Assembly: GCA_963797095.1 (NCBI GenBank) | Contig: CAWCNY010000002.1 | Span: forward strand, 1,024,001-1,088,000 | Reading direction: 5' to 3' | DNA length: 64,000 nucleotides | DNA from: an uncultured Chloroflexia bacterium | GTDB lineage: Bacteria > Chloroflexota > Chloroflexia > QHBQ01 > JADMIH01 | In this document: positions 14,011 to 64,000 of the stretch, one piece after another | Layout of the letters: the number at the start of each line of letters is the position of its first letter | Numbering within the stretch: position 1 is the stretch's first letter | Notes under the pieces: model-generated | Databases searched by the model: none | Seen by the model: the letters and a program-made list of their open reading frames with translations, nothing else | What the model was told of the DNA's origin: nothing | Program-made: the position numbers and the translations under genes

Positions 14011-14039
14011 ATCTTAGCACAAGCGTTCTAGTTATGCAA
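14011..14039 (-). promoter_or_regulatory. sigma70-like promoter with a LexA-box-like site in the spacer
   Basis: Minus strand TTGCAT-17 nt-TAAGAT with extended TG; spacer carries AGAACgcttGTGCT (GAAC-N4-GTTC, one mismatch). Confidence 0.5.
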
Positions 14040-15253: not shown

Positions 15254-15434
15254 GAGGAACGAAGGACGAACGTCCCAAATTTCAAGTTCCAAGTTCCAAG
15301 TTCCTGGTGGTCGGTAGTCGGAACGTTCGTCCTGCGTCGCCCTCTCGCAACTTCCAAGTTTGAACCGCGTGTGATACACTGTAGGCGTTCGGACGTTAGC
15401 CGACTTATGTGGACTAGCAAAGGAGGTCGTACTC

Positions 15435-16565: not shown

Positions 16566-16593
16566 TGCGTTGCGATGTATGAGAGCAACTTAG

Positions 16594-17055: not shown

Positions 17056-17065
17056 AAGTAGAAGT

Positions 17066-17671
17066 ATGGATGCGTTTTCTACCATAATCGCAGGGTTCGG
17101 GCTGTCGGCTCCGGCGGGCCTCAATGCGTGGATACCTCTGCTGGTAGCTTCGTTGGCTGCCAAGATCGGGTGGCTAAAGCTCAACGCCCCATTCAACGTG
17201 CTTGGGGAGACGTGGGTGTTGCTTGTGCTGTTGGCACTTGTCACGATCGAGCTTTTCGTGGACAAGATACCGGCGATTGATACGATCAACGATATCATTC
17301 ACACGTTCATCCGCCCGGTGGCGGGGGGTATCCTGTTCGCGGCGCAGGCAGGGGCTATCGGGGGATTGGACCCAACGGTAGGGTTTATTTTGGGGCTGCT
17401 GTCGGCGGGGGCGGTACACACGGTGAAGGCGACCGGGAGGCCGCTGGTGACGGCGTTTACCGGAGGGCTATTTAACCCTATTGTGAGCATGGTTGAGGAT
17501 ATTATCGCGGCTGTGACGGCTGTGCTGGCGCTGGTGGCCCCCATCGTGGCGGCGCTGATTATGCTGGTGTTGCTGGCGGTGGCGGGGTGGATGGTGTTGC
17601 GCTGGCGCGAGCGGCGGAGGCGGAGACGCCTGGAGGCGCAGGCAAGTGCAGCGAAGCAGGGGTCGCCGTAG
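17066..17671 (+). CDS. DUF4126 family membrane protein
   Basis: GLSAPAGLNAWIPLL, ELFVDKIP, IHTFIRP..GG and NPIVSMVED motifs. Confidence 0.9.
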   Translation: MDAFSTIIAGFGLSAPAGLNAWIPLLVASLAAKIGWLKLNAPFNVLGETWVLLVLLALVTIELFVDKIPAIDTINDIIHTFIRPVAGGILFAAQAGAIGGLDPTVGFILGLLSAGAVHTVKATGRPLVTAFTGGLFNPIVSMVEDIIAAVTAVLALVAPIVAALIMLVLLAVAGWMVLRWRERRRRRRLEAQASAAKQGSP

Positions 17672-30960: not shown

Positions 30961-30985
30961 TCCAGCGCCAATAGATGCTGTTAAG

Positions 30986-31064
30986 TAAGGGCACCCCTCG
31001 TGGGTGCCCTGTGTTCTTGCCACGATCTCTTCCCAACGGGGCGCCCACTAGGAGTGCCCCTACA
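30986..31064. repeat. REP-like double palindrome
   Basis: AGGGCACCC..GGGTGCCCT and GGGGCGCCC..GAGTGCCCCTAC. Confidence 0.6.
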
Positions 31065-31108
31065 GATAATTTGACCGCAAATCTGAGCACGTACCTTTTA
31101 TTCTGCTA

Positions 31109-31137
31109 TTGACAAGTAATTACTCTGCCTTTACACT
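31109..31137 (+). promoter_or_regulatory. sigma70 promoter
   Basis: TTGACA-17 nt-TACACT; the -10 lies in the first of two TACACTCTTATC direct repeats. Confidence 0.6.
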
Positions 31138-31230
31138 CTTATCTACACTCTTATCCGAAGCCAAACATTTATCTAATATTCCTCCCAGGGGCGCACCCGG
31201 CAAATATGCCACTATGAAGGGGGTAACACC

Positions 31231-33651
31231 ATGTACCGAATCAGGGAGATTCTATTAGCCCTGTGCCTGTTTGTACTCTGCCTGATGGTGGCGGGGATGG
31301 CGGGTGAAGCAGGAGCTTCCTACCCGGCCGGGAGCGCACCTGCAGGCACCGACCCCTACCATCATCTATCGGGCGTGGTAGCGATGCGATTGACCGGGGG
31401 TGACGGCCTGGGGATGGCTGATGGCGGAATGCACCCCGCTTCGTTTGCGTCGAACTTTGTGCGCAACCCACAATCGGTGTTTGGGAGCCTCCTTGCCCCA
31501 CCTGTGTTTGGCCCGAACGTGGATGCCACGCTCAATAACTCGGCGACCCAGAACGAAACGACCATAGGCATCGATCCAACCAGCGACCAGCGCGTGATCG
31601 CCGGGGCCAACGACTACAGGGCCAACCTTAAGCCGTATATCTATTACTCCACCGATGGCGGCGATACATGGGTCAATTACGCGGTGCCGGGCACTCACTC
31701 GATCTATTACGGCGACCCCGCGATGGCGTTCGACCGTGGAGGCTACGCCTACTTCAGCAATTTGGGCTACATCAATGTGTGCGACCCCTCCGGTGGGATG
31801 TACGTCAGCAATTCGACCGATTTTGGGGCGTCGTTCTCGGAGCCGATCACGGTGGCGACCAACTTCGTGGGTGGCGGGTTGGCGATCTTCCACGACAAAG
31901 AGTACGTGGCGGTAGACGACAACCCGTCCAGCCCCTACTCCGGCACCGTGTACCTGGGGTGGACCAAGTTCATGTTCCAGTCGGGCACAGGGTGCGGTGG
32001 CGTCAACAGCCAGTTGGGCGCGCCCATCGTCTTCTCGCGGTCGACAGATCACGGGCTGTCATGGTCGGTGCCTATCACGGCAAGCCCGCCTATCTCCAAC
32101 AACAACCAGGGGTCGCTACCTGTGATCGGCACCAACGGCGAGGTCTATCTCTACTACGTGGGCGCGGCCACTCAGAGCCAGATCAATTACAACTCGGTGC
32201 TCTTCTCGCGCTCGACCGACGGCGGGCAAACATTCCCGTTCTTCACGCGCATATCGGACCTGACCGACCTCCCAAGCCCGCTGCCGCCCACCAACTTCCG
32301 CAACAATCCGTTCGGGGCGATGGCAGCGGACAAGCAGATTTATGGGTATCTGTACGCGGTGTGGGCCGACTATCGCAACGGCGATGCCGATATTTTGCTT
32401 TCGCGCTCGACCGACGACGGAAATTCGTGGAGCGCACCACAGCGCGTAAACGACGACCCGGTAGCGAACGGCAAAGACCAATTCTTCCCCTGGATCACCG
32501 CATCTGCGGATGGAAGCATCCATATAGGGTGGTTCGATAGGCGCGAGGACGCGGCAAACCGCAACTATAAAGAGTACTATACGGTCTCTTATGACCACGG
32601 CGCGACGTGGGAGCCAAACGTGGCAGTTAGCAGCGCCGCCTCTAATCCCGGTACGTCTACGTTCATCGGGGACTATTCGGGGATAGGAGCGACCACCGGG
32701 GTGGTGATTCCAATCTGGACTGACATAAGGACTGGTACGAATCAGAACGCCTACGTGGCGCGGGGTGTATATACGGTAGGGCCAACGCTGACCCCCACAC
32801 CAACCGAAGCGCCCACGAACACGGCCACTCCGACGGCCACCGATACGCCTACCTCGTCGCCAACGCTTGTCAGCACCGCTACTGCCACCAGCACCAACAC
32901 TCCCGTTACGCCTCCGTCAAATACGCCAACAAATACTGCGGTCGTTCCGCCTACTGGCACGCCAACCAATACCCCCATAATTGTCCCTACACCCACCTCT
33001 ACCATGTGCCCCATCCAGTTCACCGATGTGCCTGAGGGTAGCACCTTCTACTCGTTCATCAGGTGCCTGGCGTGCCGGGGGATCATCAACGGCTATACGA
33101 CGGGATGCGTGACGGGAAGCCCCTGCTTCAAGCCGAACGATAATGTCACGAGGGGGCAGGTAGCCAAGATCGTGTCGAACGCGGCTGGATTCAACGAGCC
33201 TGCGACCAGCCAGCAGTACGAGGATGTGCCCGTTGGCTCTACCTTCTTCGACTTCATCTGGCGCTTGACCGTGCGGGGCTACGTCAACGGCTATCCATGC
33301 GGCGGGCCAGGGGAGCCTTGCGGGGGCGGCGGGTTGCCTTATTTCAGGCCCAACGCCGACGTGACGAGGGGGCAGATCACCAAGATCGTGTCGAATGCCG
33401 CGCAGTACAACGAAACAGCCACTGGGCAGCAGTTCCAGGACGTGGCCCCTGGTTCCACTTTCTATGACTTCATATACAGGTTGGTGATAAGAAACATCAT
33501 GTCGGGCTACCCGTGCGGAGGAGCGGGTGAGCCATGTGTAAGCCCCGACAACCTGCCTTATTTCAGGCCGGGAGCCAGCGCCACCAGGGGGCAGACATCG
33601 AAGATAGTAGCCAATACCTTCTATCCAAGTTGCGATACTCCCAGCAGATAG
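31231..33651 (+). CDS. Secreted sialidase-like (BNR) beta-propeller protein with SLH tail
   Basis: Signal peptide, QNET..DP, DKE, STDGG Asp-boxes, DQFFP, IGDY, PT linker, three SLH repeats. Confidence 0.88.
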   Translation: MYRIREILLALCLFVLCLMVAGMAGEAGASYPAGSAPAGTDPYHHLSGVVAMRLTGGDGLGMADGGMHPASFASNFVRNPQSVFGSLLAPPVFGPNVDATLNNSATQNETTIGIDPTSDQRVIAGANDYRANLKPYIYYSTDGGDTWVNYAVPGTHSIYYGDPAMAFDRGGYAYFSNLGYINVCDPSGGMYVSNSTDFGASFSEPITVATNFVGGGLAIFHDKEYVAVDDNPSSPYSGTVYLGWTKFMFQSGTGCGGVNSQLGAPIVFSRSTDHGLSWSVPITASPPISNNNQGSLPVIGTNGEVYLYYVGAATQSQINYNSVLFSRSTDGGQTFPFFTRISDLTDLPSPLPPTNFRNNPFGAMAADKQIYGYLYAVWADYRNGDADILLSRSTDDGNSWSAPQRVNDDPVANGKDQFFPWITASADGSIHIGWFDRREDAANRNYKEYYTVSYDHGATWEPNVAVSSAASNPGTSTFIGDYSGIGATTGVVIPIWTDIRTGTNQNAYVARGVYTVGPTLTPTPTEAPTNTATPTATDTPTSSPTLVSTATATSTNTPVTPPSNTPTNTAVVPPTGTPTNTPIIVPTPTSTMCPIQFTDVPEGSTFYSFIRCLACRGIINGYTTGCVTGSPCFKPNDNVTRGQVAKIVSNAAGFNEPATSQQYEDVPVGSTFFDFIWRLTVRGYVNGYPCGGPGEPCGGGGLPYFRPNADVTRGQITKIVSNAAQYNETATGQQFQDVAPGSTFYDFIYRLVIRNIMSGYPCGGAGEPCVSPDNLPYFRPGASATRGQTSKIVANTFYPSCDTPSR

Positions 33652-33668
33652 AATAGAAAGGCTCAGTC

Positions 33669-36600
33669 ATGAACAGATCGCCTGGCCGTGGGCTATGGTT
33701 GGCGTCGGCATCCCTGCTGCTGTTAGCTGTGATCGGGATCGCACTCCTTGCGCACTATACGGCCCAATCGTCACAAACCTCTCCTCCAACAGTCACAAAC
33801 TCCGCACGTAGCAGCGCGATGGGCCTGACAAGCCCGTGGCCGGGGGCCGAGCATGAAGGCTCGGAGCTACAGGAGATGGCCGACTACTGGTACCAGAGGC
33901 TGACCTATCCCACAGGCGTGCTCAACCCTGAGTGGATCTTGCAGGCCACCAAACAGGATCAACAGGTGCAGAGCGGCGTGCCCGCTGGCCGGGTGGTGTA
34001 TAACCGCGCCGAAAGCCAATCGCCCCTGGACCTCGATCCTAACAGCTTTCTATCGCTTGGGCCTAAGCCTTTGCAGTGGTTCATCGGGAACACAGGGGGA
34101 CGGGTCAATGCGATCGTGGTGGACCCTGTGGTCACAACCACCGCCTATCTGGGGGTGGCGGGCGGGGGTGTCTGGAAAAGCACCAACTGCTGCTCGCCTT
34201 CGACCGTGTGGTTGCCCGTTACGGATGTATCCTCGGTGCCAAGCATCGGCGTTGACGACCTGACCATCGACCCGAACGATCACAACGTGATATACGCGGG
34301 CACGGGCGACCTGAACTATACCCTGCCTGAGTATATCGTGGGCGGCGTGCTCAAGAGCACCGATGCGGGTGCTAGTTGGAGCGCGCTTGGGCTTGATGTG
34401 TTCAATGCCGCCTATCCGGTGCCAGGGGGCGCGCCTCCCGAAACGCAGGCCATCGGCAAGGTGAAAGTGGACCCCCGCGACAGCAACAAGATCGTGGCCG
34501 GCACCAAGAGCGGGCTGTTCGTCTCCTACGATGGAGGGGCCAACTGGGCCGGGCCGTGCTACACCAATCCCTATTCGACGCAGAGGCAGGACGTGACGGG
34601 CCTGCTGATGAGGGATACGGGCAGCTTCACCGAGTTATATGTGGCGCAGGGCACGCGCGGCTTCAGCCTGACCATCCAGCCAAGCATGGCCGAGAACGGG
34701 GCGAACGGCATATACAAGGCAGAGCTTGGGAGCAGTGGGTGCCCCGCCGGATGGTCGCTGATCACGCGCCAGGACAACGGCTGGCCCTCAGGCACGGGGA
34801 CCGGCACGCCTGGACACCTGGGTGGTGACAAATTAGGGCGTATAGATCTCGCGTTCGCGCCTGGCACTATTGGGCCGGGGAGCAGCAATGTAACTATCTA
34901 CGCGCAGGTGCAATCTACTCAGGGCAATGTAGGCGGCCAGTTGGGCGTGTGGCGCACCACCGATGGTGGCACAACCTGGAGCCAGCGGTCGAGCAGCAGC
35001 GCGCTTGTGCCGTGCCCCGGCTCGCCCTATGGCGATTTCCCGCAGAACTGGTTCGACCAGGGATTGGCCGTCGACCCGACAGACCTCAAGAACGTCTATA
35101 TGGACACCTTCGACCTGTGGCGTTCGACCGATGGGGGGGTTACGTTCACCGATATCACATGTGGGTACTCGTCGACGGCGCAGGCGCACCCCGACCACCA
35201 CGCTATAACATTCAGACCGGGCTCGACAAATGATCTGCTGGCGGGCACGGACGGTGGTGTGTATAACACAAGCGACGGCGGCACCTTCTGGCAGGAATTG
35301 AACGACACCTTAAGTACGCTTGAGTTTTACTCAGGGGATATAACAGCTGATTTCGCCAATTCCGACCACCCGGCGGCGGCAGGCGGTATGCAGGACAACG
35401 GCACCGCCGTAACCGAGTGGTTTGGCACGCCCGGCCCCTCGGCGTGGTCTGCCGTGCTGGGCGGTGATGGGATCTGGTCGCGGATTGAGCCTGTGCTGGG
35501 TCAGCGTTACTATGCCGAGGTGAACGGGGCGCGCCTCTTCGCGTCTGAAAGCGGCGGGTTTGGCGGCTACAACGAGATCACGGGCGGGTGGCGCTCGGCA
35601 CCGCACAACTACCTCTTGCCTTATGACCTGTACAAGTACGATTGCCCGGACACTGGCTGCACCCACGTGATAGTCGGTTCAAACGCGGTCAGCGAGACCG
35701 TGACCGGCGTTGCGCCGTGGATCAAAGTCAGCCCCGACTTCCCAGGCTACATCGAGAAACTGCACTATTCTGTGAGCCTCTCCACCACCGCCATATTCGG
35801 CACCAGCCAGGGGCAGGTGGTGTACGGCTTCGGGCTGGGGCAGGGCGTGATGGCGAACTGGGTGGACGTGACGGGCGGGAACGCGGTGTTGCCCAACAGG
35901 CCCATACTGGACGTGGCTACAGACCCTGTGAACCCCTTGATCGGGTACGCGGGGGTAGGAGGGTTCGGAGAGAACACTCCCGGCCACGAGGGGCACGTGT
36001 TCCGCGTGACCTGCACGGCGGATTGTGCCTCATTTGCGTGGGAGGACAAGAGCGGCAACCTGCCCGATGTACCTGTGGAGGCGATAGTGGCGAACCCCCT
36101 CTACCCACAGCAGATATTCGTGGGCACCGATTGGGGTCTGTATTACTCGGACGACATCACCGCAGGGGTGCCTGTCTGGCAGCGGTTCGACGCGGGGCTG
36201 CCGCACGCCTTCATATACGATATGCAGATCGACAGGGGCTTCACGGTGCTGTCGGTGTGGACGCGCAGCCGTGGGGCGTTCGTGTGGCCCCTGCCTGCCG
36301 GCCCTGTCGGTGGGCCGACGGTGACGCCAGGACCCGCAACTGCCACGGCTACAAGCAGCCCAACGGTTGTGCCTACCTCCACCGAGATGCCGACTGCAAC
36401 GAGCACCAGTACGAGCACCAGTATGAGTACCAGCACAAGCACCTCGACGGTTATTCCTTCCGATACGCCGTCCAGCACATATACCGTTGTGGCGGGAACC
36501 GCAACGCCGACTTTGTGCGCGATCAGCTTCACCGATGTGCCTGCGGGGAGCACCTTCTACGATTATGTGCAGTGCATGGCCTGTAAAGGGATCATCAACG

Positions 36601-37157
36601 GCTATACAACCGGCTGTGAGACGGGTAACCCGTGTTTCAGGCCTAATGCCAACGTGACGAGGGGTCAGCTATCGAAGATCGTGTCGAACGCGGCTGGCTT
36701 CCATGACGACCCCGGCAGACAATGGTTCGAGGATGTACCACCAGACTCGACCTTCTTCGACTTCATACAAAGGCTGGCGAACCGTGGGATCATCAATGGC
36801 TATCCGTGCGGTGGGCCCGGCGAGCCATGCGGGAGTGGGAGCCTGCTCTACTTCAGGCCGAACGCCAATGTGACGAGGGGTCAGCTATCGAAGATCGTGT
36901 CGAACGCGGTAGCATATAGTGACCCGCCGGGTGCGCAGCAGTTCGAGGACGTGTTGCCCGGCTCCACTTTCTATGACTATATCTGGAGGTTGGCCGACCG
37001 CGGCATAATGTCGGGCTACCAGTGCGGAGGGGTAGGAGAGCCTTGTGGAGGGGGAAGCCTGCCTTACTTCCGCCCATCCAACAATGCTACCAGGGGGCAG
37101 GCGAGCAAGATCGTGGCAAACACCTTCTTCCCAGCCTGCTCTACCCCGGACAGGTGA
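33669..37157 (+). CDS. Secreted BNR/VPS10-like double-propeller protein with SLH tail
   Basis: GGRVNAI..DP, GGVWKS, HPDHHA, GTDGG, GGMQDNG and GGDG motifs; SLH repeats. Confidence 0.88.
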   Translation: MNRSPGRGLWLASASLLLLAVIGIALLAHYTAQSSQTSPPTVTNSARSSAMGLTSPWPGAEHEGSELQEMADYWYQRLTYPTGVLNPEWILQATKQDQQVQSGVPAGRVVYNRAESQSPLDLDPNSFLSLGPKPLQWFIGNTGGRVNAIVVDPVVTTTAYLGVAGGGVWKSTNCCSPSTVWLPVTDVSSVPSIGVDDLTIDPNDHNVIYAGTGDLNYTLPEYIVGGVLKSTDAGASWSALGLDVFNAAYPVPGGAPPETQAIGKVKVDPRDSNKIVAGTKSGLFVSYDGGANWAGPCYTNPYSTQRQDVTGLLMRDTGSFTELYVAQGTRGFSLTIQPSMAENGANGIYKAELGSSGCPAGWSLITRQDNGWPSGTGTGTPGHLGGDKLGRIDLAFAPGTIGPGSSNVTIYAQVQSTQGNVGGQLGVWRTTDGGTTWSQRSSSSALVPCPGSPYGDFPQNWFDQGLAVDPTDLKNVYMDTFDLWRSTDGGVTFTDITCGYSSTAQAHPDHHAITFRPGSTNDLLAGTDGGVYNTSDGGTFWQELNDTLSTLEFYSGDITADFANSDHPAAAGGMQDNGTAVTEWFGTPGPSAWSAVLGGDGIWSRIEPVLGQRYYAEVNGARLFASESGGFGGYNEITGGWRSAPHNYLLPYDLYKYDCPDTGCTHVIVGSNAVSETVTGVAPWIKVSPDFPGYIEKLHYSVSLSTTAIFGTSQGQVVYGFGLGQGVMANWVDVTGGNAVLPNRPILDVATDPVNPLIGYAGVGGFGENTPGHEGHVFRVTCTADCASFAWEDKSGNLPDVPVEAIVANPLYPQQIFVGTDWGLYYSDDITAGVPVWQRFDAGLPHAFIYDMQIDRGFTVLSVWTRSRGAFVWPLPAGPVGGPTVTPGPATATATSSPTVVPTSTEMPTATSTSTSTSMSTSTSTSTVIPSDTPSSTYTVVAGTATPTLCAISFTDVPAGSTFYDYVQCMACKGIINGYTTGCETGNPCFRPNANVTRGQLSKIVSNAAGFHDDPGRQWFEDVPPDSTFFDFIQRLANRGIINGYPCGGPGEPCGSGSLLYFRPNANVTRGQLSKIVSNAVAYSDPPGAQQFEDVLPGSTFYDYIWRLADRGIMSGYQCGGVGEPCGGGSLPYFRPSNNATRGQASKIVANTFFPACSTPDR

Positions 37158-37327
37158 TCGCCTATGTAGAGATCGAGATCGTTGGTTCCTGATTCCTGGT
37201 TAGTGCGCGAGGGATCTTGTTCTTCGCTTATACTCTTGGGCGTGATACTCTCCTGATCGGGATCTTGGAACAGGACATTATTAGCCTGGTAGTCTATTTT
37301 GTAGCATGCAAAAGGAAGGAATCGTTT

Positions 37328-39787
37328 ATGTCATCAATCCGCAACTCGAATATGAAGTGGGTCATCGTGTTTGTGTTGGTGTTATTTTCATTGATGGTGC
37401 TAACCACTCTCTCTGAGCCGCAGACCCAGGCGGCCAATGCTTCCACACCCACCTGGTTGGCGGCGGTGCCGCTTCATCAGATCAATCCACCTCGCCGAGA
37501 GTCGGGGCCTCCCTCCGATGGTCCGGCTCCGCTGGTCGGTTTGCCGTCTCCGTTCAGGGCGTTGGATACACCGGTGTGGGGGGATAACGTGCGGGCGAAT
37601 ACCGACACACAGTCGCCTAATCGCGCCCAGCAAGAGCCAAGTATAGCGATCAACCCGACCAACCCGCTGAACGTGGTGGCTGCCGCCAAGGACGAGCGGG
37701 GAGGGGTCAACACCAAGCAGGTGTGGATCTATACGTCGACGGATGGCGGGCAGACCTGGCTCAACCAGCCGTTTCCTCATGCAACTCCAGCGCCGAGCTA
37801 TTCCAGCGACCCGGTCGTGAAGTTCAGCGACGATGGCATCTGCTACGTGGTATCGCTTCCATACGGGAGTGGCACCGTGGGCGTGCAGGTCGCTACCTCA
37901 ACCGATGGAGGCGTTACATTCGCCACAGGCACGCGGGTGACCACCAACGGCAACTCGGATAAAGAGTGGATGTGGGTCGATAACTACCCGTCCAGCCCCT
38001 ATTACCACAGGATGTACGTGGCCTGGATGGACTTCTCGCCCGGTTTCCGCGTGAATATCTCTACCGACCGGGGGCAGACGTGGGCTCAAAGCCCGCTGGG
38101 GCAGAGCGCGTACCAGTTCCCGATGCCGATTGTCTACCCGAACGGGGATGTGGTGGCGATCTTCGCCAACCCGTCTAACTTCGCGTACGTGCGATCTACC
38201 AATGGCGGCACTAGCTGGGCTTCACAACAGTCGATTGCGAATTATTCATACGCGAATTGCCCGCCCGACAATTCGGGCTGCGGCATCTGGCGTCTCAATT
38301 CGATCCCCGTGATCGCGGTGAACCCCAACAACGGCAACGCGGTTGTGGCCTGGGCCGATGGAGGCAGCCCCAACAACACCAGTACCATCAAGTTCTCGCG
38401 TGGGGCATCCAACGGAACGGTGTGGTCTGCGCCGGCGGTGCTTGCCGCGCCTGGTGTCGCCAACACCTACCAGGTAGAGCCGTGGGTAGAAGCCGACGAA
38501 AACGGCACCTTCCATGCTGTCTGGTATGACGATCGCTCGAACCCCAATACAAGTATATTCGACATCTATTACAGCCAATCCACCGACGACGGCCAGACCT
38601 GGAGCACCGCTGAGAGGATCAGCACCGCCACCAGCGACCTGCGCATAGGGATACCAAGCAGCTACGCGCTGGCCGCGGGCGACTATATTAACGTGACCGC
38701 GGCGGATGGGAATGTTTATGCGACATGGACCGACACGCGGGCAGGCAACGGCGAAGATATCTATGTGGTGCGCGGGATCATGGGCGGGGGCACGCCAACT
38801 CCCACACCTACGGGCACACCGCCCACCAGCACAGCCACGCGCACTTCGACTTCAACGTCCACATCTACATCTACGAGCACGCAAACAAATACGGCCACAC
38901 CCACAAGCACGCGTACCAATACCAGCGTGCCAACAAGCACGACAGGGCCAACAGATACGGCTGTCCCGACCGATACGCCGGGTGCGACTGGCACATCTGA
39001 GCCAACAAGCACGGCTGCGCCCACCGATACAGTAACCCCGGCACCCACAGACACCTCAACGAGTGTGGTGCCGTCCGCGACATCTACGTCCACGGCCCTG
39101 CCGACCGATACTGTGGTTGCCCCGACGGTCACGCCAACCTCGTGCGTGCTGCAATTCACCGATGTGCTGCCCGGCGATACCTTCTACGACAATATCAGGT
39201 GTCTTGCTTGCAGGGGCATCATCAACGGCTATTCGTCGGGGTGCGAGACCGGGAACCCTTGCTTCAGACCGGGGAACCTCGTTACCAGGGGGCAGATATC
39301 CAAGATAGTGTCCAACTCGGCTGGCTTCAATGGGGAGACCGGCCCGCAGCAGTACGAGGACGTGCCTCTCGGCTCGACCTTCTACGATTACATCTGGCGC
39401 TTGACTATCAGAGGGTACCTGAACGGCTATCCGTGCGGCGGGCCTGGCGAGCCTTGTGGAGCGGGGAACCTGCCTTACTTCAGGCCCAACACCAACGTCA
39501 CCAGGGGACAGCTAAGCAAGATCGTATCGGAAGCTGCCGGCTTCAACGAAGCATCTGGAGATCAGCAATTCGAGGATGTGCTGCCCGGCAGCACCTTCTA
39601 CGACTACATCTGGCGCTTGACCGACCGCAGCATCATGTCAGGCTACCCGTGCGGAGGGGTAGGAGAGCCCTGTGTAGACCCTGCCGACCTGCCATACTTC
39701 AGGCCAAGAGCCAACGCTACGAGAGGCCAAGCATCAAAGATCGTGGCTAATACCTTCTTGCCCGGCTGTGAAACGCCGGTGCGATAG
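37328..39787 (+). CDS. Secreted sialidase-like (BNR) beta-propeller protein with SLH tail
   Basis: Paralogous in layout to 31231..33651 (QQEP, SDP, DKE, GDY, WTDTR); AAGGA RBS. Confidence 0.88.
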   Translation: MSSIRNSNMKWVIVFVLVLFSLMVLTTLSEPQTQAANASTPTWLAAVPLHQINPPRRESGPPSDGPAPLVGLPSPFRALDTPVWGDNVRANTDTQSPNRAQQEPSIAINPTNPLNVVAAAKDERGGVNTKQVWIYTSTDGGQTWLNQPFPHATPAPSYSSDPVVKFSDDGICYVVSLPYGSGTVGVQVATSTDGGVTFATGTRVTTNGNSDKEWMWVDNYPSSPYYHRMYVAWMDFSPGFRVNISTDRGQTWAQSPLGQSAYQFPMPIVYPNGDVVAIFANPSNFAYVRSTNGGTSWASQQSIANYSYANCPPDNSGCGIWRLNSIPVIAVNPNNGNAVVAWADGGSPNNTSTIKFSRGASNGTVWSAPAVLAAPGVANTYQVEPWVEADENGTFHAVWYDDRSNPNTSIFDIYYSQSTDDGQTWSTAERISTATSDLRIGIPSSYALAAGDYINVTAADGNVYATWTDTRAGNGEDIYVVRGIMGGGTPTPTPTGTPPTSTATRTSTSTSTSTSTSTQTNTATPTSTRTNTSVPTSTTGPTDTAVPTDTPGATGTSEPTSTAAPTDTVTPAPTDTSTSVVPSATSTSTALPTDTVVAPTVTPTSCVLQFTDVLPGDTFYDNIRCLACRGIINGYSSGCETGNPCFRPGNLVTRGQISKIVSNSAGFNGETGPQQYEDVPLGSTFYDYIWRLTIRGYLNGYPCGGPGEPCGAGNLPYFRPNTNVTRGQLSKIVSEAAGFNEASGDQQFEDVLPGSTFYDYIWRLTDRSIMSGYPCGGVGEPCVDPADLPYFRPRANATRGQASKIVANTFLPGCETPVR

Positions 39788-50871: not shown

Positions 50872-51920
50872 TGCCGATATGCTAGATAGGGAAAGCAAGC
50901 TGCTTGAGGTGCAAGAAGTCTGCCTTACCCATGAGACGATTAATAAAGATGCACAGAGTGTGCGCAGCCAACTTGGAGTGCAGGCGAGCACACAATCCTG
51001 AGAAAGTGTAAGCGTGAGTGATTTCGATGTTGAACTGCTCGGTGAGTTGACCATTCACAGTCTCCACAATCTGGCGGGCACTGTTGATCAAGCTGCTGAC
51101 CAGTTGCTGCACGAACACAGGCATTTGGCTGATAGGGTGACGCTTCTGGTTGCGGCGAGGCAGTGTTATGAGGTTGATGTCATTGTGAAGGCGCAACTGC
51201 TCAGCCTGGTAAGTGTCAATGAAGCCTTTGTCAGCCACAGCATCCAAATGGGAGTGCCCACTCAGCAGGGAAGCCCCCGCTTCTTGGTCGGAGATGTTGG
51301 CTCCAACCAACTCGAAGTCCAAGATGGCCCCACCCAACGTGATGAGCAGATGCAGTTTGTAGCCGAAGATGGTCTTCTTCTTGGTGCAAACTCTCCCAAA
51401 AGCCGCTCCACTTCCGAGCCAATCCCCTCGTCGGCCAGAGCTAGGCACCAGGTGAAAGCCAATCACCTCTACTGGCAGAGCGTCAAGGGCACACTGACGG
51501 TCTTGGGCGATGTCGAGGCGGGTAAGAGCGATGCGCCTGATCATGTTGAAAGCCTGCGCCAGATTACACCTTCTTCTGTTGAGGCGGCTTTGAGAGGGTA
51601 TGTGAGAGAAGAGGTTGAGGTGGCGGTAGGAGGCCCAGTTGCTGAGCAGTTCGGTCTCTACGTCCCACCCTTTGCACTCACCGACCAGCACCATCGTGAT
51701 CAACTCGCTATCAGAGCACTCCGGTTGGGGACCAGGACGCTCAAACAGATGCTTCACCTGTTTCCAAAGGTCATCAACCGTGCAGTACATATACAAGCAG
51801 AAATCCTCAAAGTCGGTTATCATTGGGCTACCCTCCGATGTTTGGTATTTGGTCTTGATAACCGCTTACCTATCACATCGGAGGTTCCCTTGTCAAAGCT
51901 TTTCAACTAGCATATCGGCA
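50872..51920 (-). mobile_element. IS982 family insertion sequence
   Basis: Perfect terminal IR TGCCGATATGCTAG at both ends, flanked by a TAATA duplication. Confidence 0.9.
50882..51823 (-). CDS. IS982 family DDE transposase
   Basis: SDSELIT, SRLNRRR, DALP, GYKLH, ADKGF and RQIVETVNGQL motifs. Confidence 0.93.
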   Translation of the reverse strand: MITDFEDFCLYMYCTVDDLWKQVKHLFERPGPQPECSDSELITMVLVGECKGWDVETELLSNWASYRHLNLFSHIPSQSRLNRRRCNLAQAFNMIRRIALTRLDIAQDRQCALDALPVEVIGFHLVPSSGRRGDWLGSGAAFGRVCTKKKTIFGYKLHLLITLGGAILDFELVGANISDQEAGASLLSGHSHLDAVADKGFIDTYQAEQLRLHNDINLITLPRRNQKRHPISQMPVFVQQLVSSLINSARQIVETVNGQLTEQFNIEITHAYTFSGLCARLHSKLAAHTLCIFINRLMGKADFLHLKQLAFPI

Positions 51921-57865: not shown

Positions 57866-59746
57866 ATGCACGCTGACTACGAGGACACACTGGAAGTGCG
57901 TCTACAGCGGGTCGAAGGAGCCGTAGAGGAGATCAGGGCGACGCTCGCTCGCCTGGAGGCGGCTTCTGTCTCTGCTGGCCCCAGGGCGCCGCAGGCTACA
58001 GTTCCCCTGTCCGCCACCCATCGGGCCGTCCCAATTCCACCTCCGCCTGCGCCGCTTGAGCAAGTGTTTTGCCCAAACTGTCACGGCGGCAACCCCCCAA
58101 CAGCGCAGGTTTGTATGTGGTGCGGTAGGCCGTTGCCCGCCGCAGCACCCACGCCCGGCCTCTCTGAGTCCACTTTAGCGATACCCGCGAAGCCACTCGA
58201 TGCGGCGCGGCAGAGTGCGTTCTGGCTCAACAAGATCGGTATCGGTCTGTTCCTGTTGGGGCTGGCATTCTTCTTCAAATACTCCATCGACCAGGGTTGG
58301 CTTGGCCCGTGGGTGCGCGTCATCATAGGGCTGGCGTTCGGTACCATCCTGCTGGCGTTCGGATTGCGTCTGATCGGTAATCATCGGCACTTCGGCCAGG
58401 TGCTACTCGGCGGAGGCATCGCGGCCTACTACATCACCGGCTTTGCCTCGTTCCAGCTTCTGAACCTGGTGCCTTATCCGGTCGCTTTCGCCTTCATGGC
58501 GGCAACCACTATATTCGCGTTCTTCCTCTCCATAGGCTTCGATGCCGTGCCCCTGGCGCTCATCGCGGTCATAGGCGGGCTTGCCACTCCCTTAGTCCTG
58601 AATACAGGCGAAAGAAACATTACTGCTCTGGTGGGGTATACCCTTCTGCTTCTGGCGGGAGCAACGGCTATCTTCATGTTCAAGGGGTGGCGCTCCCTCC
58701 TCTGGTCGGCTTTCGTGGGCGGGTGGGCGGTGCTCCTGATCCCTGCTGTCCTGGCGTTGTCGCAATCCGAGCGGTGGACCCTGGAGGCCGGGGCTATCTT
58801 CATGCTATTGGCTTTCTGGATCCTCCCCGTGCTCCGAGACCTGTTGAGCATGGAGAATCCTGCTCGCTGGCCCAGGCCTGAATTAGACATCTTCGAAAGC
58901 GTCGTCAGCCCAGACTGGCGCGATTCCATGGACCTGAGCGTGCATCTGCTCACCTTTCTCACTCCCTTTGCCGTCATCGGCTATTCGGTAGGGCTAGATT
59001 GGCCGGGTTCGAATGGCGATGTGTGGGGGTTCATATCTCTAGCCGGGGCGGCTGTCTTCGGGGTACTCGCATGGTCGCTCAATAATCGCCAAAAGCAGTT
59101 AGCCTACACGCACGCTCTAACCGCTGTCGCGCTCTTTACGCTGGGTATTTCTCTAATCCTGGAGGGCGATGTCCTCTTTGTGGCGCTGGCTCTGGAGGCT
59201 GCTCTGCTGCAAGCGACGGCTCGGCGCAGGCAAGATATACGCATCGAGTGGATCGCCAACACAGGTTGGCTGCTCCTTGTGATTTGGCTGGCCGCGCGAC
59301 TGGCCTACCCTTACGCAACCGAGCTCGCTGTCTTCAATGCCTACAGTCTTAGCAATCTTGCGATTATCCTCTTGCTCGGAGGAATGTCGTGGGTTGTGCG
59401 AACACAGCAAGTCGTATGGCTCTACCGGATCGGTGCCCACATAGGCTTTCTCTGGTGGTTGTGGCGCGAATTGGAGCGTCTCCCAAGTGGTAACGCGCTC
59501 GTGACCGTGGCATGGAGCATATATGCCCTGGCGATCCTGGGTGTGGGCTCCTGGTTGAAAGGCACCAACCGTCTACCGATCATGAACATCGGTATCGCTA
59601 CTCTGTTCCTGGTGGTGGGCAAGCTGATTCTTGTTGATCTGGTGGTGCTCGACGCCGTGTGGCGTATTCTCCTATTCCTTGGCGTGGGCGCACTGCTGCT
59701 CGTTCTAAGCTATTATCTTCCCATGAACCGCAAGGAAAAATCATGA
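57866..59746 (+). CDS. DUF2339 family membrane protein with N-terminal zinc ribbon
   Basis: CPNC..CMWCG; WLNKIGI..FFKYSIDQGWLGP.VR; KLILVDL..WRILLFLG. Confidence 0.88.
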   Translation: MHADYEDTLEVRLQRVEGAVEEIRATLARLEAASVSAGPRAPQATVPLSATHRAVPIPPPPAPLEQVFCPNCHGGNPPTAQVCMWCGRPLPAAAPTPGLSESTLAIPAKPLDAARQSAFWLNKIGIGLFLLGLAFFFKYSIDQGWLGPWVRVIIGLAFGTILLAFGLRLIGNHRHFGQVLLGGGIAAYYITGFASFQLLNLVPYPVAFAFMAATTIFAFFLSIGFDAVPLALIAVIGGLATPLVLNTGERNITALVGYTLLLLAGATAIFMFKGWRSLLWSAFVGGWAVLLIPAVLALSQSERWTLEAGAIFMLLAFWILPVLRDLLSMENPARWPRPELDIFESVVSPDWRDSMDLSVHLLTFLTPFAVIGYSVGLDWPGSNGDVWGFISLAGAAVFGVLAWSLNNRQKQLAYTHALTAVALFTLGISLILEGDVLFVALALEAALLQATARRRQDIRIEWIANTGWLLLVIWLAARLAYPYATELAVFNAYSLSNLAIILLLGGMSWVVRTQQVVWLYRIGAHIGFLWWLWRELERLPSGNALVTVAWSIYALAILGVGSWLKGTNRLPIMNIGIATLFLVVGKLILVDLVVLDAVWRILLFLGVGALLLVLSYYLPMNRKEKS

Positions 59747-59825
59747 ATCGTGGGTCATGCATCTGAAATCACGCGAGCAATCCGGCCCGTATACGCGCAA
59801 AGACTTTGCATCCATCCATTTTGCT

Positions 59826-60052
59826 CAGGGCGATTGCATCTAAATTCGTTTTGGGCCAAAAGGTCAGATTCCATGGGCATCTCGACCTTATGGAGGCGCC
59901 TCAAGGTCGAAAAGCCAGTCCCAAGACACCCCAGGATGCTATTGTGACTGGCTCGCGAGCCACTATCAGAGCCTTCTGTGGCCGTACTACCGACTGTGGT
60001 GGGCCCGTTTGAGCCATTTTCAGTCGAATCCACTTTAGATGCAATCGCCCTG
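59826..60052. mobile_element. 227-bp MITE with ISAs1-like ends
   Basis: 19-bp perfect IR CAGGGCGATTGCATCTAAA; 10-bp target duplication CCATTTTGCT at 59816-59825 and 60053-60062; no transposase. Confidence 0.85.
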
Positions 60053-60071
60053 CCATTTTGCTCGATTCCTA

Positions 60072-60101
60072 TTGACTAATTCACCCCAAGACTGATATAT
60101 T
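60072..60101 (+). promoter_or_regulatory. sigma70-like promoter of module copy 1
   Basis: TTGACT-18 nt-TATATT with extended TG. Confidence 0.5.
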
Positions 60102-60186
60102 TACCAGGCGACCTTTTGGGGGTTTGTATGGCATGGTCCGGCCATGCTTTTGGCCGGGTTTTAGTTGTGGCAAGGGAGGCTATTTT

Positions 60187-60621
60187 ATGCTGGAACAGAA
60201 AATCAAGGTATTCAGCGAGGCGCTGGCGCGCGTAGTAGACAGGCGAACATTCCTGCGACGAATGGGCGGCACTATGGTAGCCGGAGTATCGGCAATGGTG
60301 ATGGGTCCTGCTCTTGCTAGCGCCGGGGCAGGCGCCGCCAGTAAGGCGCTTGCATCCCCTACTATTAGCTGCTCTCCTCCGGGACCGTACTGCAACACGG
60401 GCGGGGGCGACACCAGCGGCTGCCGGGGAGGTCATTGCTATCAGCACCAGACCGCTCCCAATACAGTTACTTGCCAGGTGTATTACACGTACTATGCGAC
60501 AGGGTGTTGGACCAGTGCGGTAAGTGGCGGATACTGGACCTGCTGTGACTGCCGGTGTAGTAACAACGCTACCTGCGGCTGCGCTCAGTTCAACCCGGGC
60601 GGCAACCCAAGCCCGCACTAA
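60187..60621 (+). CDS. Tat-exported Cys-rich small protein, copy 1
   Basis: GGAGG RBS; DRRTFLRR twin-arginine signal; 12 Cys and 2 Trp in the mature part. Confidence 0.85.
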   Translation: MLEQKIKVFSEALARVVDRRTFLRRMGGTMVAGVSAMVMGPALASAGAGAASKALASPTISCSPPGPYCNTGGGDTSGCRGGHCYQHQTAPNTVTCQVYYTYYATGCWTSAVSGGYWTCCDCRCSNNATCGCAQFNPGGNPSPH

Positions 60622-60639
60622 TAAGGGGAGACAGAAATA

Positions 60640-62814
60640 ATGACTAAGCGATTATCTAAATTATTCATTCTGTTCCTGATCCCTATGGTGCTGGTGGCGT
60701 TGCTCACAGCTTATGCTGCCAACCAGGGTGCAGGGCAAGCAAAGATGGCTACGGCTGCCAACGGGCAGACTTTCCTGCCAGCAGGCACGTGGTCCGATCT
60801 TCCTGTATTTCCAGACGTAACACTGAACTTTGGAGGAAGCTCCTCAGGGTGTGTTGGCACAAGCGGCACCTCCCCTCTCCAACTCAAGAGGTCATTGGCT
60901 GTAGCCTACCCTCCCAACGGCAAAGTCTATATCCTCGGTGGGAGACATAGAGCCGATGGTGATGACATCAACTCCGAGTGGATCTATGAGTACACTCCTG
61001 GCGATAGCTCCTACGTCCTCAAGAACGCCAGGCTTGATAACTGCCGCTACAGCCTCCGCTTCACCTCCAACATGGCTGGTGGTGTCCTCAACGATGGTAC
61101 AGGCACCTACATCTATGCCGTTGGTGGCTCCAACGTAGATAGCGTCGCCACCAACATGGTGCGTGTGTACGACCCGGTTGCGGATACAGTCACTACCCTC
61201 ACCAGCGACCCGTGGCCGGCCAGTCCAACCAGGATACCAGGTGGGTATGCAGTGTACAACAACAAACTGTACATCTTCGGAGGGTACGTATCCCAACCCT
61301 CATCAGTGGTGTACTCAGACACATGGGTATTCGACCCGACAGCCTCAGCAGGCTCAAAGTGGTCCCAGATAGCAAGTGCCAACCTGAGTGTAGCCAGAGG
61401 GTTCATAGGAGGGGCATCACTCGATGGGTGGCTGTACGCAGTGGGAGGCAACGTCATAACAGGAGTAGTAACCACCACCGTGACCCCGCAGACAGTGGTG
61501 GAGAGGATGGACCCAGGAGCAGGCAGTCCCACATGGCAGGCGGTAGCGAGTTTACCGGTAGCGAGGGGAGATGTAGGAATATGGGCATACGACAGTACAA
61601 GCGGGTATGAGATAGGTGGGAGGCTAGTGATAGGGGGAGGGGGGTGGCCGGTACCGGACACGAGTGCCTACATCTACGACCCCACAACAGACAGTTGGAG
61701 CACCTTTGCATCACTGCTAAGGGCGAGGAGGGACGTAGGGCACACAGAGTTAGACGGGAAGCTGTACGCATTTGGAGGGTACAATGTAACAGACAGCTAC
61801 TATGGTGCCAACGACAGCATGGTCTATGACGCCACAGGCCCAGGCCCAACTCCTACCAATACCGTTCCACCTACCAGTACATCCACATCTACAGCGACTA
61901 ACACGCCTGTACCGCCGACGAACACCCCTACAAATACACCTGTACCTCCAACCGCCACATCTGTGCCTCCTACCGACACGCCGGTTCCGACAGATACAGA
62001 TACACCGGTACCTACCGACACGCCCGTTCCGACAGACACGGCTGTGCCACCTACAGATACACCTGTACCACCCACAGACACCCCTGTAATAGTGCCAACT
62101 GATACTGATACACCGGTGCCGCCTACGGATACGCCCGTAGTGGTGCCAACCGATACGCCGGTGCCTACGGAAGTGCTGCCAACTCCTACCACCTGCGCGA
62201 TCTCGTTCTCGGACGTAGATTCGAGCAACACCTTCTACAGCTACATTATGTGCCTGGCATGCGATGGCATCCTCAATGGTTATCCTGATGGTACGTTCCG
62301 GCCTGCTAATCTGGTAACCAGGGGCCAGCTTGCCAAGATCGTGTCCAACTCAGCGGGCTGGAATGAGCCTGTTTCGGGCCAGACCTTCCAGGATGTGCCG
62401 GAGGGGTCCACCTTCTACGAGTTCGCCGAGCGCATGGCTGCGCATGGCGTAATGTCGGGCTACGCGTGCGGTGGGCCAGGTGAGCCTTGCGGTGCTGGCA
62501 ATCTGCCCTACTTCAGGCCTGATGCGTCCGCTACTCGCGGCCAGATAGCCAAGATCGTATCCGAGTCCGCCGGCTTCGGCGGCGATCCGGGTGTCCGGAT
62601 CTTCGAGGACGTGGCGTTAGGCTCCACCTTCTACGAATACATCCAACGGCTTGCCATGCTTGGCATAGTAAACGGTTACGACTGCGGCGGGCCGGGAGAG
62701 CCGTGTGATGCGTATAACAGGCCGTACTTCAGGCCCAACAACAATGCCACACGCGGCCAGATAGCCAAGATCGTCTCTTTAGCTTTCTTCCCAAGCTGTG
62801 GCACGACGAAGTAA
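60640..62814 (+). CDS. Kelch-repeat beta-propeller protein with PT linker and SLH tail, copy 1
   Basis: Signal peptide; KVYILGG, IYAVGG, KLYIFGG, LYAVGG, LVIGGG, KLYAFGG blades; PTDTPV repeats; three SLH. Confidence 0.9.
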   Translation: MTKRLSKLFILFLIPMVLVALLTAYAANQGAGQAKMATAANGQTFLPAGTWSDLPVFPDVTLNFGGSSSGCVGTSGTSPLQLKRSLAVAYPPNGKVYILGGRHRADGDDINSEWIYEYTPGDSSYVLKNARLDNCRYSLRFTSNMAGGVLNDGTGTYIYAVGGSNVDSVATNMVRVYDPVADTVTTLTSDPWPASPTRIPGGYAVYNNKLYIFGGYVSQPSSVVYSDTWVFDPTASAGSKWSQIASANLSVARGFIGGASLDGWLYAVGGNVITGVVTTTVTPQTVVERMDPGAGSPTWQAVASLPVARGDVGIWAYDSTSGYEIGGRLVIGGGGWPVPDTSAYIYDPTTDSWSTFASLLRARRDVGHTELDGKLYAFGGYNVTDSYYGANDSMVYDATGPGPTPTNTVPPTSTSTSTATNTPVPPTNTPTNTPVPPTATSVPPTDTPVPTDTDTPVPTDTPVPTDTAVPPTDTPVPPTDTPVIVPTDTDTPVPPTDTPVVVPTDTPVPTEVLPTPTTCAISFSDVDSSNTFYSYIMCLACDGILNGYPDGTFRPANLVTRGQLAKIVSNSAGWNEPVSGQTFQDVPEGSTFYEFAERMAAHGVMSGYACGGPGEPCGAGNLPYFRPDASATRGQIAKIVSESAGFGGDPGVRIFEDVALGSTFYEYIQRLAMLGIVNGYDCGGPGEPCDAYNRPYFRPNNNATRGQIAKIVSLAFFPSCGTTK

Positions 62815-62829
62815 GATCGCTTCAACCTG

Positions 62830-62863
62830 CAAGAAACCCGCGCTCAGCGCGGGTTTCTTGTTG
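62830..62863 (+). terminator. Intrinsic terminator
   Basis: CAAGAAACCCGCGC-loop-GCGCGGGTTTCTTG followed by TTGT. Confidence 0.85.
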
Positions 62864-62888
62864 TATGAAAAGATAACTCTCCTGACTA

Positions 62889-62917
62889 TTGACTCCAAAG
62901 TGCGCCGATGCTATAGT
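62889..62917 (+). promoter_or_regulatory. sigma70 promoter of module copy 2
   Basis: TTGACT-17 nt-TATAGT with extended TG. Confidence 0.65.
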
Positions 62918-63164
62918 AACCCCATATTTCTCGCTTGCGGCTTCATAACTTTCTTTCATAACTGATCAGGGCCGCGTAGCTTGATAAGCCTTTCAAAACC
63001 ATTGCTGACTGATAAGTTGGTGTCCGATTATCGTATCCAATTTAGGAGCGGATTTGAGACCGGCCCTTACCGCCTGGATTTGAAGGGTGCTTTCAACATA
63101 GTAGAGACGCTCGAGCACTTTACCGGCGTCCATGTGAGTCTGTGTTTCCAGAGGGAGCGAGAAA

Positions 63165-63599
63165 ATGTTTGAACAAACCATACGGGTATTCAGCGAGGCG
63201 CTGGCGCGCGTAGTAGACAGGCGAACATTCCTGCGACGAATGGGCGGCACTATGGTAGCCGGAGTATCGGCGCTGGTGATGGGTCCTGCTCTCGCCAACG
63301 CGGGAGCAAGTGCTGCTTCTCAGGCCCTTGCATCGCCCACCATCAGTTGTGCCCCTCCGGGACCGTACTGCAACACGGGCGGGGGCGACACCAGCGGCTG
63401 CCGGGGAGGTCATTGCTATCAGCACCAGACCGCTCCCAATACAGTTACTTGCCAGGTGTATTACACATTCTACGCGACAGGGTGTTGGACCAGTGCGGTA
63501 AGTGGCGGATACTGGACCTGCTGTGACTGCCGGTGTAGTAACAACGCTACCTGCGGCTGCGCTCAGTTCAACCCGGGCGGCAACCCAAGCCCACATTGA
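63165..63599 (+). CDS. Tat-exported Cys-rich small protein, copy 2
   Basis: 144 aa, same length as copy 1; the Cys-rich domain differs at only two residues. Confidence 0.87.
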   Translation: MFEQTIRVFSEALARVVDRRTFLRRMGGTMVAGVSALVMGPALANAGASAASQALASPTISCAPPGPYCNTGGGDTSGCRGGHCYQHQTAPNTVTCQVYYTFYATGCWTSAVSGGYWTCCDCRCSNNATCGCAQFNPGGNPSPH

Positions 63600-63659
63600 T
63601 CCGGTTTCGCGTATGTTAGTTCTTCGCGGAATCTCATAACCCATTACCCAAAGGGGAAG

Positions 63660-64000
63660 ATGATGTCTAAACGGCTTACTAGCCTGGTTATCGTGTTCCT
63701 GATTCCTGTCGTGCTGGTAGCTCTGCTGTCGGCCTACTTAGTCTCTCAGAATGCTGGTGGGGTACGGCTTGCCACCGTAGCGAGCGGGCAGGGGCTATTG
63801 CCCTCCGGAACCTGGAGCAACCTTCCTGTATTCCCGACAGTAACACTGAACTTTGGAGGAAGCTCCTCAGGGTGTGTTGGCACAAGCGGCACCTCCCCTC
63901 TCCAACTCAAGAGGTCATTGGCTGTAGCCTACCCTCCCAACGGCAAAGTCTATATCCTCGGTGGGAGACATAGAGCCGATGGTGATGACATCGACTCCGA
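63660..64000 (+). CDS. Kelch-repeat protein, copy 2 (3' truncated by window edge)
   Basis: Open frame MMSKRLTSLV...LNFGGSSSGCVGTSG...KVYILGGRHRADGDD matching 60640.. Confidence 0.85.
   Translation, partial: MMSKRLTSLVIVFLIPVVLVALLSAYLVSQNAGGVRLATVASGQGLLPSGTWSNLPVFPTVTLNFGGSSSGCVGTSGTSPLQLKRSLAVAYPPNGKVYILGGRHRADGDDIDS

Follow-up and report, generated by a model that had tools for sequence, protein, structure and literature searches.

We analysed a 64,000-nucleotide stretch of the genome of an uncultured Chloroflexia bacterium (assembly GCA_963797095.1, contig CAWCNY010000002.1, positions 1,024,001 to 1,088,000; hereafter the window, with positions counted from its first base). At its 3' end, two units lie head to tail on the plus strand, each a gene for a 144-residue protein with a twin-arginine translocation (Tat) leader, 12 Cys and two Trp, followed by a gene for a Kelch-propeller protein with an S-layer homology (SLH) anchor. 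An earlier note, made from the letters of the window, had described these two units and proposed that the proteins might form a light/heavy redox pair like that of methylamine dehydrogenase (MADH); the open-reading frames (ORFs) and Pfam agree with the description, including the SLH anchor at the end of the first Kelch protein and the truncation of the second gene by the window edge, whilst the proposal is weighed below. The features of the two units are as follows.

60072-60101 (+), promoter-like site of unit 1: TTGACT, 18 nt spacer, TATATT, from a consensus scan
60187-60621 (+), small gene copy 1, an ORF of 144 aa with GGGAGG 7 nt 5' of the ATG
60187-60354 (+), Tat-type leader of copy 1, residues 1-56, predicted by the AxA rule to be cleaved after ALA
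60355-60618 (+), mature 12-Cys/2-Trp domain of copy 1, residues 57-144
60640-62814 (+), Kelch-propeller/SLH gene 1, 724 aa, from Pfam
~60751-61845 (+), Kelch propeller of gene 1
~62203-62811 (+), SLH stretches of gene 1
62829-62861 (+), intrinsic-terminator-like hairpin closing unit 1: perfect 15-bp stem, 3-nt loop, then UUGUUGU
62889-62917 (+), promoter-like site of unit 2: TTGACT, 17 nt spacer, TATAGT, from a consensus scan
63165-63599 (+), small gene copy 2, an ORF of 144 aa with GGGAG before the ATG
63660-64000 (+), Kelch-propeller gene 2, recognised by its likeness to gene 1 and cut by the window edge, 113 aa present

The two copies of the small protein are identical at 135 of 144 residues (94%) and both carry a conserved 18-residue n-region, the DRRTFL motif, a hydrophobic stretch and a site between ALA and SP; within the [DNG]RRxF[LIV] motif of the small-protein leaders the RR pair is invariant. 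The mature domain of ca. 88 residues contains the 12 Cys and the two Trp, one in GCW and one in YWTCCDC; the WTCCDC stretch also supplies an Asp, and CxQH a His. The Cys/Trp pattern that the earlier note had read is present in both copies. The Pro-rich C-terminal tail is variable. Between the copies, the ratio of non-synonymous to synonymous substitution rates (dN/dS) is 0.137 over the whole gene and 0.051 over the mature part, where 10 differences are synonymous and 2 non-synonymous; for the large gene, gene 1 against gene 2, it is 0.278 across the initial 112 codons. The small genes are under strong purifying selection, and the low dN/dS indicates that both copies are maintained by selection; these values, together with the 322 relatives described below, show that the units are real genes and not chance ORFs. 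Longer minus-strand ORFs overlap both small genes (60076-60618 and 63120-63644) and are shadows of the conserved sense genes. An alternative upstream TTG at 60124 would extend copy 1 to 165 residues.

The product of the first large gene, which starts nineteen bases after small gene copy 1, runs from an N-terminal hydrophobic signal or anchor through the Kelch propeller (Kelch_1, PF01344, four stretches, E 3.8e-22, 77.9 bits against a cut-off of 20.1) and a Pro/Thr-rich linker to three SLH stretches (PF00395, E 1.3e-24, 86.3 bits against a cut-off of 20.8). The 113 residues of the second large gene that lie within the window are 79% identical to the N-terminus of the first. The nearest solved sequences to the propeller are those of KLHL/Keap1-type and designed Kelch propellers, and the invariant columns across 29 Kelch partners of the family contain no His and no Cys.

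The promoter-like site that the earlier note assigned to each unit was located in both cases, and the two sites share CTATTGACT. The three such sites found in the region are no excess over the 2.2 +/- 1.4 expected by chance, but the -35 and -10 hexamers of the unit 1 site (CCTATTGACT...TATATT) keep their sequence and position ahead of the orthologous genes in the three closest loci (L001, L002 and L003). The hairpin that closes unit 1 has a folding energy of -32.5 kcal/mol (z -7.4), equalled by 0 of 200 shuffles, and an Rfam scan over 59700-64000 gave only matches below the gathering score, all of them on this hairpin. A second terminator-like hairpin, followed by a T-run, lies at 60135-60160 (+), downstream of the unit 1 promoter-like site and within the 5' leader that precedes the ATG of copy 1, and exhibits no obvious conservation in L001-L003 or upstream of copy 2.

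A word-seeded search with the small protein gave 322 relatives at E <= 0.01 among 398 candidates, whilst an exhaustive search of 1.84 billion proteins with a mature-domain profile gave 20 cluster representatives at E <= 0.001, so the family is narrow. Its hosts are almost all Chloroflexia metagenome-assembled genomes (MAGs), as are the few listed relatives that bear an organism name, with a small actinobacterial branch comprising locus L039 and seven proteins. Among the 120 listed relatives no Pfam domain occurs, and 'hypothetical protein' is the sole name. Both Trp are kept in all 120, a result in favour of the earlier note, with a spacing of 9 residues in 104 and of 5-11 residues overall; exactly 12 Cys occur in 118, the exceptions being a C-terminally truncated protein with 10 and another with 14. 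All 12 Cys, the two Trp and the Asp occur without exception in 54 mature domains derived from the loci examined below, and the CxQH His is nearly invariant there. A more distant relative, P0060, is 54% identical to the query. No fused (longer) form of the small protein was found, in itself weak evidence, and tblastn of the protein against plasmids gave no match. Against Pfam and NCBIfam at E <= 1 no family was matched, the single line returned being a generic Tat-region model (E 0.36), and against PDB nothing meaningful was matched by the single sequence or the profile. By these searches the small protein appears to represent an uncharacterised family, nearly confined to Chloroflexia and absent from Pfam, NCBIfam and PDB, which agrees with its being undescribed as first suggested. 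A literature search on MauE/MauD or tryptophylquinone with Chloroflexi and Kelch found no paper describing the family, most subscription journals lying outside the search.

To place the units in context, we clustered all ORFs of 39 loci that carry the small gene (38 in MAGs of Chloroflexota and L039 in an Actinomycetota MAG, with up to 6 kb on each side) and collected the recurrent neighbours. In 27 of the 36 assessable loci, a gene for a Kelch-propeller homologue follows on the strand of the small gene, the other three loci (L004, L029 and L032) being too short downstream, at contig ends, to judge; this linkage speaks for the idea of the earlier note. The nine loci lacking a downstream Kelch gene are L016, L018, L019, L021, L023, L025, L026, L030 and L039, and in L021 a Kelch gene lies upstream in divergent orientation. 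One to five small genes stand in tandem before one Kelch gene. In L006 (6001-12137) the small-plus-Kelch module is tandem-duplicated too, with Kelch propellers 99% identical over 354 aa and a second small gene broken by a frameshift, which may point to a pseudogene or to a fault of the assembly.

Directly upstream of the small gene and on the same strand, 26 of the 39 loci carry a gene for a MauD-like, membrane-anchored thioredoxin-fold protein of ca. 195 aa, and tblastn with Paracoccus denitrificans MauD matches the same 26 loci. MauD (TIGR02661) is the top NCBIfam model for all three thioredoxins tested (E 4e-21, 6.9e-22 and 1.3e-12, all below the curated cut-off); ResA/TlpA-type reductase models also match, less well than MauD. 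The proteins align end to end with true MauD and have the CxxC and a C-terminal motif in common with it, and among plasmids their best matches mostly bear the annotation mauD. A MauE gene precedes the MauD-like gene in six loci (PF07291, E 4.9e-27 to 4.8e-23 in the four scanned), and the MauE of L016 contains a CXC motif (PCHCFG). Directly after the small genes, seven loci, the actinobacterial one included, encode a 200-aa multi-pass membrane protein that is a homologue of MauF: a profile of these proteins aligned to MauF of three mau clusters with an hhalign probability of 98.3% (E 2.2e-14, 150 columns), starting at MauF position 91, so that the N-terminal part is missing (200 aa against 277-291). 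The MauF proteins that were scanned matched neither Pfam nor NCBIfam models. The MauF-like protein has a weak likeness to DsbD_2 (PF13386, E 1.7e-4 to 0.012), below the gathering score, and the seven MauF-like proteins printed contain no Cys.

Three layouts are common: an SLH protein (in some loci), the MauD-like gene, one to five small genes and Kelch/SLH; MauE, the MauD-like gene, one to three small genes and the MauF-like gene; and the small gene with Kelch/SLH alone, which is the layout of the window and its closest relatives L001, L002 and L003. Six MAGs are represented by more than one locus, and each of them has a MauD-like gene in one locus or more, which makes action in trans on units of the window type plausible. 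The architectures are intermixed in a tree of the 54 mature domains, so there is no separate Kelch-free clade. In a mirror-tree analysis of 16 loci, the small protein correlates with Kelch at r 0.73 and with the thioredoxin at r 0.73, and Kelch with the thioredoxin at r 0.84 (0 of 2000 permutations as high in each case); the three are inherited jointly and there is no extra small-Kelch signal.

Other genes also lie near some of the loci. SLH-anchored M14 zinc carboxypeptidase genes flank six of them, upstream in L032, L033, L034 and L036 and downstream on the opposite strand in L010 and L011. In L016 (2552-4218), genes for an extracytoplasmic function (ECF) sigma factor and a zf-HC2 anti-sigma factor lie upstream of the MauE - MauD-like - small - MauF-like series, with one opposite-strand ORF between the pair and MauE, and a LuxR-type gene is present in L030. 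The MauF homologue is followed in three loci (L016 7257-7934, L023 7552-8283 and L025 2888-3577) by a protein of ca. 230 aa that matches no family and bears an LxGC signal of the lipoprotein type.

Type-1 copper domains were first met as amicyanin matches inside the Kelch ORFs when all P. denitrificans Mau proteins were compared with the loci. Pfam places a cupredoxin domain in eight of 23 Kelch ORFs (L007, L009, L010, L011, L013, L015, L020, which has two, and L031) and, in L030, also in the protein encoded ahead of the small gene, which is not a Kelch protein. Among the ten domains the copper loop is C-x2-H-x2-M in seven, a loop length that we take to be a mark of amicyanin, and C-x2-H-x3-M in two, whilst one has no Met in the stretch examined; one of the seven reads YHCTPHPFM, exactly as in the amicyanin of P. 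denitrificans. Amicyanin (TIGR02657) is the top cupredoxin model in six of the nine proteins and halocyanin in three, all below the curated cut-offs (the best amicyanin score is 88.6 bits, the cut-off 110.2 bits). Of 24 proteins adjoining small genes nine have the domain, as against 0 of 16 SLH proteins from elsewhere (Fisher p 0.006); the comparison leaves out the Kelch proteins of the window and of L021, both without the domain. The amicyanin-like domains suggest redox chemistry, with electrons leaving through copper.

Whether the small protein itself is a relative of MauA, the MADH light chain, has a divided answer. A full-length profile aligned to four precursors of MauA and AauA, the light chain of aromatic amine dehydrogenase (AADH), with an hhalign probability of 83.8% (E 7.9e-6) across the leader and the C-x6-C-x9-C stretch, and two sets of column shuffles of the MauA alignment never reached this score (0/200 and 0/200). 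A language-model feature search with P0056, a relative that shares 52% identity with the protein of the window, placed clusters carrying PF02975 (MADH light chain) at 17 of the 30 nearest, with a best score of 0.96 and 204 of 256 features; the same search with the mature part alone returned no usable match and did not recover the protein's own family either, hence it is uninformative. Scored by part, MauA-likeness is 24.5 for the leader, 14.6 for the N-terminal mature part (reached by 2/60 shuffles) and 14.3 for the whole mature part (12/60), and the n-region alone scores 10.2, in a different register and reached by 2/60 shuffles. The full-length likeness thus comes mostly from the leader, and even there unrelated NapG Tat leaders score 16.6-18.2 against 17.8-22.1 for single MauA/AauA leaders. 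The mature-only profile, the comparison invited by the original light-chain idea, aligned to MauA with a probability of 0.3%, no detectable homology to MADH or AADH light chains. Neither PF02975 nor TIGR02659 matched the small protein at E <= 1, where true MauA scores 2e-53 and 2.8e-120 respectively, and PDB searches at E <= 10 with sequence and profile found no MADH/AADH light chain among hits from a library holding 11 such sequences. Cys spacing is unlike that of MauA save for the N-terminal C-x6-C-x9-C, and the two Trp are 5-11 residues apart as against 51 for the two invariant MauA Trp, which are presumably the pair that forms the cofactor; the mismatch in spacing had already been noted from the window. 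Homology of the mature domain to MauA is, as far as these alignments go, unproven, and the Mau link therefore rests on gene context. By sequence, the small protein does not appear to be a MADH light chain, yet it shares much of the genetic plan of that system.

The enzymes built on this plan, the tryptophan-tryptophylquinone (TTQ) amine dehydrogenases, are the textbook case of a cofactor made from a protein's own residues, and to our knowledge they occur only with MauB-type heavy chains and mostly in Pseudomonadota. We tentatively propose, with a confidence slightly short of even, that each unit encodes two chains of a cell-wall-anchored complex on the TTQ amine dehydrogenase plan. The small protein would be exported by Tat and its six-disulfide knot folded by a relay of MauE (DsbB-like) and MauD (DsbA-like) with the MauF-like membrane protein; in the window genome this machinery would be encoded elsewhere and work in trans. 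The folded small subunit would then dock on the Kelch propeller, itself fixed to the wall via its SLH domains. More tentatively, a redox centre could form in the small subunit from its conserved Trp, Cys and Asp residues, an extracellular substrate might be oxidised there, an amine being the obvious guess, and the electrons might pass to the cupredoxin domain where one is present. A Trp-derived cofactor in the small protein is, taken by itself, unlikely. Equally doubtful is the fullest form of the idea, a new class of surface dehydrogenase in which a miniature six-disulfide light chain bears a TTQ-like or cysteine tryptophylquinone (CTQ)-like quinone made without MauG and sits on an SLH-fixed Kelch heavy chain, to which in many members an amicyanin-like electron acceptor of its own is fused.

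The comparison with MADH and AADH, as encoded by mauFBEDACJGMN on plasmid 1 of P. denitrificans and by the aau cluster, illustrates both sides. Common to the two are a 12-Cys small subunit made with a leader of the Tat type, a beta-propeller partner chain and, in the related loci, the gene order MauE, MauD, small subunit found in mau and aau clusters, as well as the MauF homologue and amicyanin-like copper protein of the mau cluster. However, the mature domain of the small protein is ca. 88 aa long against ca. 131 and is not detectably homologous, the propeller is of the Kelch type, unrelated to MauB and SLH-anchored, the cupredoxin is fused to the propeller chain here and a separate protein there, no MauG, MauJ, MauM or MauN lies near the 39 loci, and the hosts are Chloroflexia here and Pseudomonadota there.

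A number of results, in addition to the MauA comparisons above, weigh against the amine dehydrogenase plan. The Kelch profile aligned to MauB with a probability of 0.3%, that is, no homology. MauG, MauB, MauJ, MauM and MauN gave no tblastn match at E <= 0.01 in the 39 loci and the window, and no ORF with more than one CxxCH occurs in either; MauG can, however, be encoded away from mauBEDA, as reported for Methylacidiphilum infernorum (PMC2474590). The remark in the earlier note that mauD/E/G-type genes are not visible is correct for the 64-kb window, where no MauD-, MauE- or MauF-like gene was found and the other genes are of no relevant family, but it does not carry over to the related loci, where genes of the first two kinds and a MauF-like gene stand beside the small gene; MauG was found in neither. 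Pfam finds no cupredoxin domain in the gene 1 product of the window, and the domain is missing in 15 of the 23 Kelch chains. Up to five small genes per Kelch gene do not suggest a simple 1:1 enzyme, and in P0139, a distant representative (E 4.9e-4), a Tyr replaces the second Trp. The idea of a MADH-like light/heavy pair thus has strong backing from context, in the MauD-, MauE- and MauF-like neighbours and the amicyanin-like domains, whilst neither homology to MauA or MauB nor a MauG near the loci was found. The other readings offered in the earlier note, metal binding or a modified peptide, are still conceivable.

The Mau-type helpers themselves can be read in two ways. In a recent preprint, MauE is described as a general DsbB-like disulfide-forming protein with a CXC active site and MauD as its DsbA-like intermediary, and MauE is said to co-occur with MauA in just 10.2% of MauE-bearing species (bioRxiv 10.64898/2026.03.05.709764). 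Since MauE is reported there to be a generalist, MauE and MauD would point to disulfides and not by themselves to a quinone. The loci resemble that folding pathway in having a CXC MauE and a membrane-anchored CxxC thioredoxin beside the gene of a multi-disulfide substrate; they differ in that the genes stand beside one substrate family together with a MauF homologue, that the MauD-like gene is alone in most loci, and that this is not general housekeeping. On these grounds the small protein might instead serve the Kelch/SLH protein as a ligand, a cap or an accessory subunit knotted by disulfides, in a non-catalytic surface module for adhesion, binding or S-layer structure, with the Mau-like genes providing oxidative folding only and the two Trp being structural, an explanation that we regard as somewhat unlikely in both its parts. 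It is consistent with the generalist roles of MauE and MauD given in that preprint, with the lack of MauG or a haem protein near the loci, with the likeness of the propeller to protein-binding KLHL/Keap1-type propellers without invariant His or Cys, with the position of the loci among other SLH surface proteins and with a mature domain that is not homologous to MauA. However, it leaves unexplained why amicyanin-like domains are enriched on the partner chains, why a MauF homologue and an invariant set of Trp, Trp and Asp are present, and why MADH light chains make up 17 of the 30 clusters that the feature search placed nearest.

Copper handling, in which the Cys-rich protein would bind Cu(I) by its thiolates and store it or deliver it to the cupredoxins whilst the TlpA/MauD-like thioredoxin keeps the Cys reduced, is improbable. 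The 12 Cys and nearly invariant CxQH His, the cupredoxin domains on neighbouring chains, the secondary matches of the thioredoxins to ResA/TlpA-type reductases and the weak DsbD_2 likeness of the MauF-like protein would all suit it, but MauD is the best model for the thioredoxins, the seven MauF-like proteins printed have no Cys, so that an electron relay in the manner of DsbD or CcdA is impossible, a cupredoxin is missing in most loci and in the window, the small protein matched no Pfam or NCBIfam family of any kind, and in the preprint cited above MauE is reported to be oxidising, not reducing (bioRxiv 10.64898/2026.03.05.709764). That the small, secreted, Cys-rich product acts as a toxin, a bacteriocin or a signal, for which the Kelch/SLH protein would be the receptor or confer immunity, and that the one to five tandem genes are its variants, is scarcely credible despite the regulators near some loci (the ECF sigma/anti-sigma pair of L016, the LuxR-type gene of L030), because selection on the mature part is purifying, not diversifying, the core is highly conserved across the family and no transporter, protease or immunity-type gene is a conserved neighbour; Tat export and Mau-type helpers are also atypical of bacteriocins.

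Two further enzyme types can be set beside the TTQ-plan reading. In quinohaemoprotein amine dehydrogenase, a small gamma subunit with CTQ is combined with a propeller beta subunit, and the enzyme requires a radical-SAM maturase and a haem subunit. The point of likeness is a propeller subunit that holds, or in our family would hold, a small Cys-rich subunit with the cofactor, whilst neither a radical-SAM maturase nor a haem-subunit gene was present among the neighbours scanned. The Kelch copper radical oxidases galactose oxidase and GlxA likewise offer a secreted Kelch propeller with copper nearby; their copper-radical site requires His and Cys, and the 29 Kelch partners have neither among their invariant columns.

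The family comprises several hundred proteins of soil Chloroflexia that have a leader, a cysteine count, three helper genes and an amicyanin-type partner in common with TTQ enzymes. A TTQ-like genetic plan on a different catalytic-subunit fold and a different propeller would either widen the class of amine dehydrogenases or show a broader use of the Mau helpers, in which case the set, MauF included, would serve a wider group of disulfide-knotted exported proteins. Either outcome would bear on how MauE, MauD and MauF act and on the role of the abundant SLH-anchored surface proteins of Chloroflexia.

Surface proteins of this kind are also encoded elsewhere in the window. The window starts inside another SLH protein gene, and upstream of the two units an island of four consecutive plus-strand genes (27748-39784; 1070, 806, 1162 and 856 aa) encodes proteins that all end in SLH and carry BNR, sialidase-like, Sortilin-Vps10 or Rax2 propeller-type repeats, with 2-433 and 26695-27678 also listed. 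We rejected 10990-17300 as an odd region: its longest ORFs are on the wrong strand and without Pfam matches, and ordinary plus-strand ORFs are present (e.g. 11089-11877 and 12332-13543), which fits the strong GC skew there. Mobile elements are represented by a DDE transposase gene at 50882-51823 (-; PF13612, PF01609) and by an IS605-family TnpB gene at 8877-10043 (+), with OrfB_IS605 and a Cas12f1-like TNB domain, which lies between a citrate synthase gene and panC and near panB (6410-7285).

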